This document shows positions 7,545-8,731 of a stretch of DNA of 8,731 bases, piece by piece (position 1 is the first letter of the stretch; the number at the start of each line of letters is the position of its first letter). The notes beneath the pieces were generated by a model. The model was given only the letters and a program-made list of their open reading frames with translations, had not been told where the DNA came from and searched no databases. Position numbers and translations under genes: made by a program. Source of the stretch: a plasmid; sequence record NZ_CP116681.1; one strand, given 5' to 3'.

Positions 7545-7830
7545 TAGATTTTGTACAAAATTAAATATATATAATTCAACTAATTAAATAAAAAATAATA
7601 ATTAGATTACGTACAAACTTATTTGTACAGAATTAATTTATTCTAAAACAAAAACTTATTTAAATATAATGCTTTTTTTATGTACAATCATGAGTACATA
7701 TTTTTTCTTAAATTTATCAATATCTTATCTAAAAAAAGTGTTGTTTTGATGTACAACCATGAGCACAGCATAAAAAATAGATAATTCAATCACTTATTCT
7801 AAAAAAAGACCATTTTTCTGTACACGTTTC
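7545..7830. repeat. Array of TGTACA(A) palindromic cores in AT-rich DNA upstream of the RHH-like gene, including three roughly 69-bp iteron-like direct repeat units
   Basis: TGTACA occurs at 7552, 7624, 7681, 7750 and 7819, with CGTACA at 7610. About 0.1 copies would be expected by chance in 280 bp at this base composition. Units at 7673-7740, 7741-7811 and 7812-7880 share tTGTACAA.CATGAG.ACA...CTAAAAAAAG. AGATT..GTACAAA is repeated at 7544 and 7601. Confidence 0.6.
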
Positions 7831-7908
7831 TGAGACCCTAAAAAATCGCTGAAATCCTTATCCTGTAAGGCTTTGAGGGGTGTCATCGTTAGATGCGTGG
7901 TGTGTGAC

Positions 7909-7933
7909 AAAAAAATCCCGGCATGTGCCGGAT
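7909..7933 (-). terminator. Strong rho-independent terminator on the minus strand inside a GC-richer island
   Basis: On the minus strand, GATCCGGCA-CAT-GCCGGGAT (5-7 bp GC stem) is followed by UUUUUUU; on the plus strand this appears as A7 followed by TCCCGGCATGTGCCGGAT. Confidence 0.6.
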
Positions 7934-8185
7934 CTTGGATTGGAAAATTGGCTAAAGTGACGTAGGGCCGGTGCTTGGTTTTGCATGGAAAAAAGTATTT
8001 ATTTCCTTGTTTAGAAAAACGTAAAAAATCAATTTTTTGTCCATTCATCCAGGTTAAAAATTTCAACCCAAAACTTTAATTATGAAAAGCTTCATAGAAC
8101 GCGTTCAAATGCGATTTAAGAGCCTTTACCTAGAAAACATAGATCTCATAGTGAAAAACACAAAACAGCTCAAAAAACGCAAATG

Positions 8186-8495
8186 AGAGCGAAATAAAGA
8201 GGTATTTTGACTTTAGATAGATGCATAGAGCGAGTGTCTACGAGCGAACTATCAAAATTTGCGCCTAGACCCTCTGAAAAACATTTTTTTGTCCTCTTTA
8301 GCCTAAGAAAGCGTAAGTTTCGTGCAGAAATTTGCTCCTGGATCGAGCGTAGCGAGTAAAAAAGTTTTATGAGCGAAGCGAATTCCAAGTTTCTTTTGCT
8401 TTTTTTTAAAGTCACGCCAGTATTAACCAAAAAATTGCCCCAACGAACTGAGCGAAAGCGAAGTTCAATAGAGTTTGAGCGAAGCGAAAACCAAG
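8186..8495. repeat. Dispersed family of paired GAGCGA hexamers (GAGCGAAGCGAA-like), including a roughly 50-bp unit duplicated about 105 bp apart
   Basis: Copies at 8186, 8228 (GAGCGAgtgtctacGAGCGAA), 8345 (GAGCGtAGCGAG), 8371 (GAGCGAAGCGAAttCCAAG), 8450 (GAGCGAaAGCGAAG) and 8477 (GAGCGAAGCGAAaaCCAAG). Units 8344-8388 and 8449-8495 align along their length. Confidence 0.6.
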
Positions 8496-8590
8496 GGCAA
8501 TTTTTCATTCCCTGGGCTTTTAATTATTTTAAAGTTTTTAAATACTTTTAAATGGCTTGAAAGCCTTATGAATAAAGGGTTTTAGCTCTT

Positions 8591-8678
8591 ATATGTCCAC
8601 GTTTACCTTGCAATATGTCCACGTTTACCTTGCAATATGTCCACGTTTACCTTGCAATATGTCCACGTTTACCTTGCA
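8591..8678. repeat. Four perfect tandem 22-bp iterons (ATATGTCCACGTTTACCTTGCA); Rep_3 origin
   Basis: Exact head-to-tail 22-bp repeats ending 53 bp before the window end, which would be immediately upstream of the rep ATG at 1 if circular. An AT-rich stretch (8521-8590) precedes them. Confidence 0.9.
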
Positions 8679-8681
8679 TTA

Positions 8682-8706
8682 GTACACAAATAATATTAAC
8701 GTGTAC
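8682..8706. promoter_or_regulatory. Inverted repeat GTACAC-N13-GTGTAC between the iterons and the rep start; candidate rep promoter/operator
   Basis: 6-bp arms with a 13-bp AT-rich spacer, about 25 bp upstream of the rep ATG if circular. Rep_3 initiators commonly autoregulate at such inverted half-iteron-like sites. Confidence 0.3.
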
Positions 8707-8731
8707 TTATACACAATAAAAAATAGTGGCT

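Follow-up and report, generated by a model that had tools for sequence, protein, structure and literature searches.

In plasmid R1, the leading strand is primed at the primase-only G-site, adjacent to a theta origin that depends on Rep; ssiA and ssiB of RSF1010 start strands for a plasmid primase, and the single-strand origins of rolling-circle plasmids (ssoA, ssoU and others) are long, orientation-specific folds of single-stranded DNA (ssDNA) that are tuned to the host and exchangeable between replicons as cassettes. In iteron origins of the pPS10 or pSC101 type, the A+T-rich region has the iterons on one side and DnaA boxes on the other. Here we describe a module of approximately 290 nt (8228-8505) that takes the latter side in the sequence record NZ_CP116681.1, a complete small plasmid of Acinetobacter baumannii of the Rep_3/RepAci1 (R3-T1) type, the whole 8731 bp of which is hereafter referred to as the window. 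The GAGCGA repeats found in this region, upstream of the A+T-rich region and the iterons, are five hairpins (H1 to H5) formed by the + (purine-rich) strand only, and the module that contains them probably is a single-strand signal that is linked to the origin and composed of unusual, well-defined structural motifs of DNA.

The complementary-strand origins of phages G4, St-1 and α3 and the R1 G-site are strand-specific stem-loops and, as would be the case for the module, are located on the template from which the primed strand is copied. The mini-hairpin consensus found in H2 to H5 is present in hairpin I of G4 as GCGAAAGC and in St-1 and α3 as GCGTTAGC (PMC13037366). There is, however, no homology past this 7-8-nt mini-hairpin, and the module differs from the G4-type signals in having five hairpins, tandem G·A steps and a three-way junction, as well as an only partly conserved CTG start site and a host that is Acinetobacter rather than E. 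coli. In RSF1010 (IncQ), ssiA and ssiB are 40-nt hairpins located in the plasmid oriV next to iterons (PMC8567376), much as the module adjoins an iteron origin. The CCGAAGG mini-hairpin of ssiA supports primase binding (PMC13037366), and one Acinetobacter module subfamily contains a CCGAAGG or CCCGAATGGG hairpin with GA..GA flanks, like ssiA. In contrast to RSF1010, which has its own primase and helicase and one ssi per strand, the module is present on one strand only and the plasmids encode only Rep, with or without orfX. The likeness to the single-strand origins of rolling-circle plasmids consists in a long, strand- and orientation-specific ssDNA fold and in cassette exchange (summarized in PMC10378824), but those origins go with a rolling-circle Rep and a double-strand origin, and the primer is made by RNA polymerase, with the CS-6 sequence (TAGCGT) located in a loop. 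The structural motif itself is identical to that of CGAG-block hairpins and of d(ATGAGCGAATA)2, with 5'-CGAG/3'-GAGC and 5'-TGAG/3'-AAGC steps between G:C pairs (PMC10085684); the sequence of the d(ATGAGCGAATA)2 duplex (cited in PMC10085684) is that of the H3 arms. The CGAG blocks described there belong to a repeat of a human promoter and to a synthetic oligomer (PMC10085684), with no known link to replication. Finally, iterons and DnaA boxes resemble the module as short repeated motifs at a plasmid origin, but the module differs between its two strands, shows covariation of stems and does not change along with Rep.

The original prediction had noted an unexplained GAGCGA repeat family with six paired copies and a longer duplicated unit. 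The family is indeed non-random: GAGCGA occurs 7 times in the 8731-bp window compared to a mean of 1.56 in dinucleotide shuffles (0 of 200 reach 7), with six copies on the + strand (at 8187, 8228, 8242, 8371, 8450 and 8477), and the pattern AGCGA-N0-9-AGCGA occurs 4 times, every time in the repeat region, against 0.04 expected. The paired units number five, not six, and correspond to the five hairpins (Table 1); the supposed sixth copy, GAGCGA at 8187-8192, is a single hexamer without a partner. This hexamer borders the segment CGCAAATGAGAGC, which in some relatives directly adjoins hairpin 1, with approximately 35 nt more between them in the window. The longer duplicated unit was borne out as well, as a 20-nt repeat (8370-8389 and 8476-8495, 90% identity, starts 106 nt apart), and a covariance model built from 8431-8503 (99.7 bits, E 8.5e-30 for this segment itself) re-finds 8328-8391 weakly (16.6 bits, E 0.11), so that the H2-H3 pair resembles the H4-H5 pair located approximately 105 nt away. 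The phasing of these units by ten helical turns (105 bp) did not hold: among relatives, the distance from H3 to H4 ranges from approximately 68 to 90 nt, via 12-nt indels. The span from H1 to the end of the P1 stem is near 288-289 nt in many lineages.

All five hairpins share one plan, in which Watson-Crick flanks and one or two tandem G·A steps surround a 2-bp apical stem that carries a small loop. In each of them, the G·A steps are found in the Y-GA-R context ('CGAG blocks'), with C/T-GA-G paired with C-GA-G/A; the sheared geometry of these steps is predicted from the motif match. H2 to H5 have the apical stem GC/GC and a loop GNA or GNNA, which is the mini-hairpin DNA consensus GCGNAGC/GCGNNAGC (in the window, GCGTAGC at 8348, GCGAAGC at 8374, GCGAAAGC at 8453 and GCGAAGC at 8480), and H1 has the apical stem GT/AC and the loop GTCT. 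The sequence GAGCGA is self-'complementary' if G·A pairs are counted, and therefore direct repeats of it mimic inverted repeats, so that the fold needs independent evidence, for which flanks, apical stems and loops can each be examined. All three support hairpins.

The flanks of the three-way junction (8432-8503), in which the P1 stem encloses H4 and H5, were compared in 62 distinct copies of 8431-8503. In these, 99.6% of the alignment cells are paired, compared to at most 45% with slid partners, and 10 of the 22 pairs show double changes, with 97 such cells compared to 19.7 in shuffles, none of 500 of which attains this number; because the sequences share descent, fewer independent events lie behind these counts of covarying cells than the numbers suggest, yet several different replacement stems are present for each helix. 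RNAalifold arrives independently at the same three-way junction. Within it, H4 shows double changes in 6 of its 7 Watson-Crick pairs, with 99.8% of the cells paired and flanks that include AACT/AGTT, AATC/GATT, GCTGT/ACAGC and GAAGC/GCTTC, and H5 is paired in 100% of the cells, with double changes in three pairs (GTTT/AAAC to GTAC/GTAC to GTAT/ATAC). The P1 pair 8435-8500 is U-A in 45 sequences and C-G in 17, and the linker between H4 and H5 is invariant or at least 90% conserved in the 62 sequences. H1, re-sampled from loci anchored on the linker, is 100% paired, with invariant G·A positions and loop and with double changes in 3 of its 4 pairs (G-C to A-T twice, C-G to T-A once). The closing C-G pair of H2 is replaced by U-A once and by U·G three times. 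The 15-mer of H3 is nearly invariant except for the loop N (A65/T6/G2/C1) and the covarying pair 8370-8382, in which U-A is replaced by C-G in 3 sequences; in other subfamilies, the H3 flanks are CT..AG, CAC..GTG or GCAT..ATGC. Tandem-GA hairpins with at least 4 contiguous closing pairs account for 44 of the 135 distinct hairpins of this type, compared to 6.2 with shuffled partners. A different pairing was obtained when RNAalifold was run on the full 347-column alignment, where H2 pairs with H3; we judged this to be an artefact of the repeated GC..GC units and rejected it.

The apical stems vary in the same manner, from GC/GC to GT/AC, AC/GT or GGC/GCC, the last of these in H5 of one sequence. 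Variation within the repeat is free at a single base, the loop N, whereas the matching base of the second half is invariant; symmetric binding sites would not predict this asymmetry, which thus points to a hairpin. In H2, no column varies more than the loop base (T38/A30/G3/C3), and the other positions are at least 85% conserved. Across relatives, the loop N can be any of the four bases, and the loops GAAA, GATA, GTAA, GGAA, GCAA and GAGA are also found, with AAA, ATA, CTA, TTTA or TT in a minority of copies; the H4 loops alone include GAAA, GATA, GTAA, GGAA, GCAA, GCA, TTTA and TT. The folding strand is the + strand, that is, the sense strand of rep, because the G and A of the tandem steps, which on the complementary strand would be C·T, are invariant (62 and 32 distinct sequences) and because the one-sided changes that keep a standard pair always produce G·T on the + strand and never A·C.

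Table 1. Positions of the hairpin module and of the other origin features in the window.
Feature	Position	Strand	Description
repM	1-951 (start = 1 on the circular map)	+	RefSeq annotation; followed by 'plasmid replication DNA-binding protein'
Hairpin 1 (H1)	8228-8247	+	GA-GC-GA-GT-GTCT-AC-GA-GC-GA; two tandem G·A steps
H1 Watson-Crick pairs	8230-8245, 8231-8244, 8234-8241, 8235-8240	+	Four in total
Unpaired motif CCCTCTGAAAAAC	8270-8282	+	Consensus YCYTGAWWA; 5'-CTG-3' at 8274-8276; 27 nt 3' of H1
Hairpin 2 (H2)	8344-8356	+	C-GA-GC-GTA-GC-GA-G; 'CGAG block' closed by GCGTAGC, GNA mini-hairpin
Hairpin 3 (H3)	8369-8383	+	AT-GA-GC-GAA-GC-GA-AT
T-rich tract, then conserved AAAGTCACG	8390-8416	+	One TTGCTTTTG-type unit here
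P1 5' arm AAAAATTGCCC	8430-8440	+	11-nt perfect inverted repeat with 8495-8505
Hairpin 4 (H4)	8445-8466	+	GAACT-GA-GC-GAAA-GC-GA-AGTTC; inside the three-way junction
Single-stranded linker AATAGA	8467-8472	+	Between H4 and H5
Hairpin 5 (H5)	8473-8491	+	GTTT-GA-GC-GAA-GC-GA-AAAC; inside the three-way junction
P1 3' arm GGGCAATTTTT	8495-8505	+	Partner of 8430-8440; 11-bp stem closes the three-way junction
A+T-rich region	8517-8553	+	Three ~11-nt CTTTTAA-type repeats (CTTTTAATTAT / TTTTTAAATA / CTTTTAAATGG type), + strand T-rich
Imperfect palindrome	8555-8586		Consensus in relatives CTGAAAGCC-N~10-GGCTTTCAG; between the A+T-rich region and the iterons
Iterons	8591-8678	+	Four 22-bp copies; Rep-specific part of the origin

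A sensitive BLAST search of PLSDB with 8150-8560 as the query identified the module in 859 plasmids, of which 849 are from Acinetobacter. The match always ends at approximately 8550, just before the iterons, whereas the starts are nested (8150, 8163, ~8228, ~8329, 8344 and 8360). In ten divergent plasmids (3.8-22 kb, several species), all AGCGA pairs recur with strand and order unchanged, approximately 200 nt upstream of repM; thus, of the conservation that had been suggested as a check of the repeats, the pairs are kept but their spacing varies. The H1 19-mer (AGCGAGTGTCTACGAGCGA) is found in 10 of these 10 plasmids and in at least 120 genome contigs, nearly all from Acinetobacter, the exceptions being one Alkanindiges and others labelled as other genera, mostly metagenome-assembled genomes. 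The contigs with odd labels (Bacteroidia, Sulfurimonas, Aquiluna, Kineococcus, Kurthia and other genera; L021, L030, L037, L038, L049, L052, L056, L068, L070 and L088) likely are mis-binned or contaminant small plasmids. A 17-nt linker pattern with 15 specified bases retrieved 58 further true modules from metagenomes. The same pattern has 75 exact matches in IMG/VR, all 75 of which are due to chance and none of which comes with a module, and a phage origin of the module was accordingly rejected. In Psychrobacter (121 records) and Moraxella (79 records) with related Rep_3 genes, the module was not found, and approximately one third of the Acinetobacter Rep_3 plasmid records show no BLAST match to it.

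The module is tightly linked to Rep_3 and is at the same time independent of the Rep sequence. A Rep_3 gene is located downstream, on the same strand, in 128 of the 129 modules with enough sequence, at a median distance of 279 nt from the linker. The Rep_3 genes are of the iteron, theta type, and TAGCGA at 8350-8355 is mostly in a stem or a G·A step; on these grounds, a single-strand origin of the ssoA type was rejected. The median identity of the 73-nt core is 86-89% whether the neighbouring Rep is less than 40% or 60-80% identical to that of the window; in one locus (L327), the Rep is only 45% identical and the iterons are unrelated but the core is almost identical (98.7 bits). For this reason, the module cannot be a set of Rep-binding iterons, in agreement with the original distinction between the GAGCGA repeats and the iterons, which are separate 22-mers (Table 1), and its conservation in hundreds of plasmids with differing Rep proteins and iterons upholds the earlier suggestion that the repeats are kept by selection. 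The genes after repM differ among module-bearing replicons, and a plasmid of 2356 bp contains hardly anything other than rep with three iterons, the A+T-rich region and the module. Mobilisable plasmids make up about half of the carriers, and non-mobilisable plasmids keep the module as well; the linkage to Rep_3 rather than to mob genes argues against a relation to oriT. Similarly, the constant place and orientation upstream of a Rep_3 gene argue against a mobile-element fragment, such as the degenerate insertion sequence or satellite that had been considered in the original prediction.

The origin thus described is made of two halves, namely a conserved cassette, with the hairpin array followed by the A+T-rich repeats, and varying pairs of iterons and Rep_3, in one orientation throughout. 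The former probably is the host-facing half, and the latter the plasmid-specific half. At least one of the A+T-rich repeats is present in 63 of 78 distinct loci, where the median start of the first is 13 nt after P1, and the repeats are kept across plasmids whose iterons are unrelated. They probably are the DNA unwinding element. Their location on the iteron side away from rep resembles that of the oriC unwinding element relative to its DnaA boxes. The imperfect palindrome that separates them from the iterons is present in most relatives, with some variants that apparently covary (GCA/TGC), and could be a host-factor site or a further hairpin. No DnaA-box-like sites (TTATCCACA-like 9-mers, at most 1 mismatch) were detected in 8100-8700, and such sites are found in 5 of 93 elements compared to 10 in shuffled controls; their near-absence from the window and the 93 elements rules out a DnaA-box cluster. 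The sole DnaA-box-like 9-mer near the origin, TTATACACA (8707-8715, 1 mismatch), lies between the last iteron and the start of rep.

We tentatively propose, at somewhat less than an even chance, that the module is a strand-specific, host-specific ssDNA initiation signal for priming or helicase entry, similar to the single-strand initiation (ssi) sites. A host-specific entry site of this kind would be consistent with the paucity of DnaA boxes and with the confinement to a single genus. Under the proposed mechanism, Rep would open the adjoining A+T-rich region, and a helicase loaded on the A-rich - strand would run away from the iterons, exposing the + strand, which would be the leading-strand template of that fork. 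The exposed strand would fold into the G·A-zipped mini-hairpins and the three-way junction; the hairpins would bind SSB poorly, by analogy with the model systems (PMC13037366), and the folded array would serve as a defined entry site for DnaG primase, a PriA-type primosome or RNA polymerase, from which the first strand would start. The invariant single-stranded bases (AATAGA, the GTCT loop and CCCTGA) could be offered to host proteins. A more specific scenario, possible but doubtful, is that a genus-specific 'G·A-zipper mini-hairpin array' on one strand replaces DnaA boxes and recruits the priming or helicase-loading machinery of the host either to the opened origin or to incoming ssDNA. In either form, an accessory origin function, which was among the candidates originally put forward, or an action through nucleic-acid structure would be the best reading of the repeats.

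Several points weigh against an initiation signal. Only ~30% of the distinct loci have a CTG after P1, beside the A+T-rich region, and this triplet was therefore rejected as a universal primase start, and for a fork that leaves toward rep, the + strand would not be the leading-strand template. The minimal replicon of pMAC is summarized as 'rep plus four direct repeats' (PMC5559437), and because the extent of the upstream DNA in it is not stated, the module may be dispensable for basal replication. H2 and H3 are too conserved to show much covariation. No sign of unusual stability came from nearest-neighbour folding of 8217-8510 (z -0.12 on the + strand and +0.25 on the - strand), but these values are uninformative because the energy model (ViennaRNA, DNA parameters) has no terms for G·A steps and mini-hairpins, the special stability of which is taken here from the literature and not from folding energies. 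Finally, the choice between DNA and RNA is built on indirect arguments, and most of the 4-nt loops of H4 are GNAA and as such are also compatible with the GNRA loops of RNA.

Folding as DNA is nevertheless favoured, clearly if not decisively, judging from the loops and stems and from the surroundings of the module. The main rival to the ssDNA signal is a structured RNA, that is, a noncoding RNA, a transcript with a priming or regulatory role, or an insulator or terminator of transcription, made from the + strand toward the origin, in which the hairpins, with their GNRA-like GAAA loop and tandem G·A pairs, would be RNA motifs. Covariation does not separate RNA from DNA, P1 is bordered by an A-run and a T-run in the style of a bidirectional terminator, and for the BMMF circles, which are relatives of Acinetobacter plasmids, a short, structured transcript whose start lies 290-318 bp upstream of rep was reported in human cells (PMC5809378); that transcript, however, is antisense (PMC5809378). 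The loops follow the GCGNAGC/GCGNNAGC rule with all four N, and mini-hairpins of this kind melt at 76.5 °C (GCGAAGC and GCGAAAGC) or at ~70-72 °C for most loop variants, bind SSB poorly and are located at the primase start of phages G4, St-1 and α3 and in RSF1010 ssiA (PMC13037366). The CGAG block, a tandem sheared G:A in the Y-GA-R context, is a stable DNA hairpin motif proven by nuclear magnetic resonance (PMC10085684). GNA triloops are found at 3 of the 4 GCG..AGC-type sites (H2, H3 and H5) and GATA and TTTA loops occur as well, all of them stable loops of the DNA rather than the RNA type (PMC13037366), T-rich DNA-style loops (TTTA, TTTT, TT) stand in for GNA in some lineages, and G·U pairs are very rare (~10 of ~2300 cells). 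The scans for promoters, limited to the sigma-70-type consensus, found none that is conserved upstream of H1 (6 scattered matches in 102 distinct flanks), none conserved on the + strand inside the module in relatives and none there in the window; the only recurrent promoter-like match is on the - strand within the A+T-rich region (26 of 93). There is no + strand terminator-like site in the window and, as judged by eye, relatives do not share the sequence that follows P1. The flanks upstream of H1 are unrelated between plasmids, Rfam 15 yields no match in 8100-8731 even at E up to 1, and in the part of the Hi-GRIL-seq data for AB5075 that was available, the only partners on p2AB5075 are coding sequences, which is a weak negative. 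Thus, a structured RNA appears unlikely, although it deserves to be taken seriously.

The structural and strand evidence would be identical if the folded ssDNA had a role other than priming, such as opening the A+T-rich region, loading or stalling a helicase, sensing supercoiling or controlling copy number, or serving as a single-strand origin for the complementary strand after natural transformation or mobilisation has brought the plasmid in as ssDNA. The genus Acinetobacter is naturally competent, many carriers, about half, are mobilisable, and ssDNA intermediates have been reported for some Rep_3 plasmids of other genera (PMC10378824). However, it is with Rep_3 origins rather than with mob genes that the module is associated, and non-mobilisable plasmids and those of 2.3 kb keep it; the non-priming roles, which we consider improbable as a group, are not separable from priming by sequence. 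It is much less likely still that AGCGA/GAGCGA are, in line with the main idea of the original prediction, direct repeats recognized in duplex DNA by a protein, be it a host factor, Rep or the 191-aa helix-turn-helix protein. Short repeated motifs at origins classically are protein sites, and some sequence-specific recognition is indeed likely because the G·A positions, the linker AATAGA and the H1 loop GTCT are invariant in sequence. Nevertheless, compensatory changes in the flanks, which covary as stems, and in the apical stems are unexpected for duplex sites, the constraint is asymmetric, with the loop N free and its counterpart fixed, the copies are all on one strand and their spacing is unphased. 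Moreover, the module is kept with Rep proteins less than 40% identical and with unrelated iterons; it is also kept with other small genes after repM and in the plasmid of 2356 bp, which disfavours the helix-turn-helix protein in particular. The least credible of the alternatives, to which we attach hardly any weight, is that the region is coding or is a functionless relic of a mobile element or of slippage. An ATG-started open reading frame of 112 codons (8170-8508, - strand) does span the region, but neither this frame nor those of 60 and 50 codons have a Pfam match, RefSeq leaves the region unannotated, with no gene in 8170-8560, open frames across the module vary among relatives in strand and length (20 to 130 codons) and 1-nt loop indels are common; a relic would be at odds with the fixed position relative to rep and with the covariation.

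Reviews and typing papers on Acinetobacter plasmids mention only iterons, rep, orfX and pdif modules (PMC5559437, PMC9927589). A search of the literature with the motif strings, subscription literature aside, returned only coincidences with primers and no description of the module. The papers on BMMF/SPHINX, circles from milk and meat that are relatives of Acinetobacter Rep_3 plasmids, report a short palindrome and, ~300 bp upstream of rep, a hairpin transcript in antisense but make no mention of an array of this kind (PMC5809378, PMC10378824); the start of that transcript is about where the module lies. Rep_3 is the commonest plasmid type in A. baumannii and carries carbapenemase modules such as OXA-24/72. 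Nevertheless, a 2017 review counted only one experimental study of the basic replicon of these plasmids, the origin of which is described as 'iterons plus rep' (PMC5559437, PMC9927589). A genus-restricted module of ~290 nt that is better conserved than Rep and folds on one strand would be a missing component of the origin so described, with a bearing on the start of DNA synthesis without DnaA boxes, on the confinement of the plasmids to Acinetobacter and on the design of shuttle vectors and anti-plasmid agents. It would also be a natural case, under strong selection, of mini-hairpin and CGAG-block DNA, which is known mostly from oligonucleotide chemistry. If the more specific scenario of an array in place of DnaA boxes is correct, the array would help to set the narrow host range of these resistance plasmids and could be swapped between them as a cassette for host adaptation.

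The segments between the hairpins also contain conserved elements. The unpaired motif 3' of H1 (consensus YCYTGAWWA) is found 20-35 nt 3' of H1 in 84 of 105 distinct loci and forms nearly invariant columns in our alignment A2; that it might be a primer start site is speculation. The TTGCTTTTG-type unit (8390-8407 in the window) is present in 1-3 copies among plasmids as a result of 12-nt indels (ATCTTGCTTTTG; alignment A2, columns ~210-240), and AAAGTCAC(G/A)A is conserved in the same alignment. The sequence GCTTTTGC is a weak mini-hairpin sequence in its own right. Many relatives contain an extra hairpin between H1 and H2 (alignment A2, columns ~114-140; e.g., L005, L015 and L028), A-GA-GCATCCC-(GAAT/GCAT/GAA)-GGGTGC-GA-AC, which includes a CCGAAGG mini-hairpin; the subfamily of the window is without it. 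In five loci (L023, L052, L058, L067 and L112), the H1 19-mer is doubled, with the copies 87-90 nt apart, and is accompanied by a compact module of ~195 nt, and in two others (L062 and L013, the latter a 304-kb contig), H1 is solitary, with no module downstream.

The segment 7900-8731 is identical (100%) to that of pAB-NCGM253 and of many further plasmids, and pAB0057, which also has 8731 bp, was assigned to the RepAci1 (R3-T1) type in a typing paper (PMC9927589). Outside the module, a terminator-like GC-rich hairpin followed by a T-run (TCCGGCACATGCCGGG ATTTTTTT) is present at 7917-7932 on the - strand. This hairpin falls within an annotated hypothetical open reading frame of 84 aa (7794-8048, - strand), on which its location inside the frame casts some doubt.

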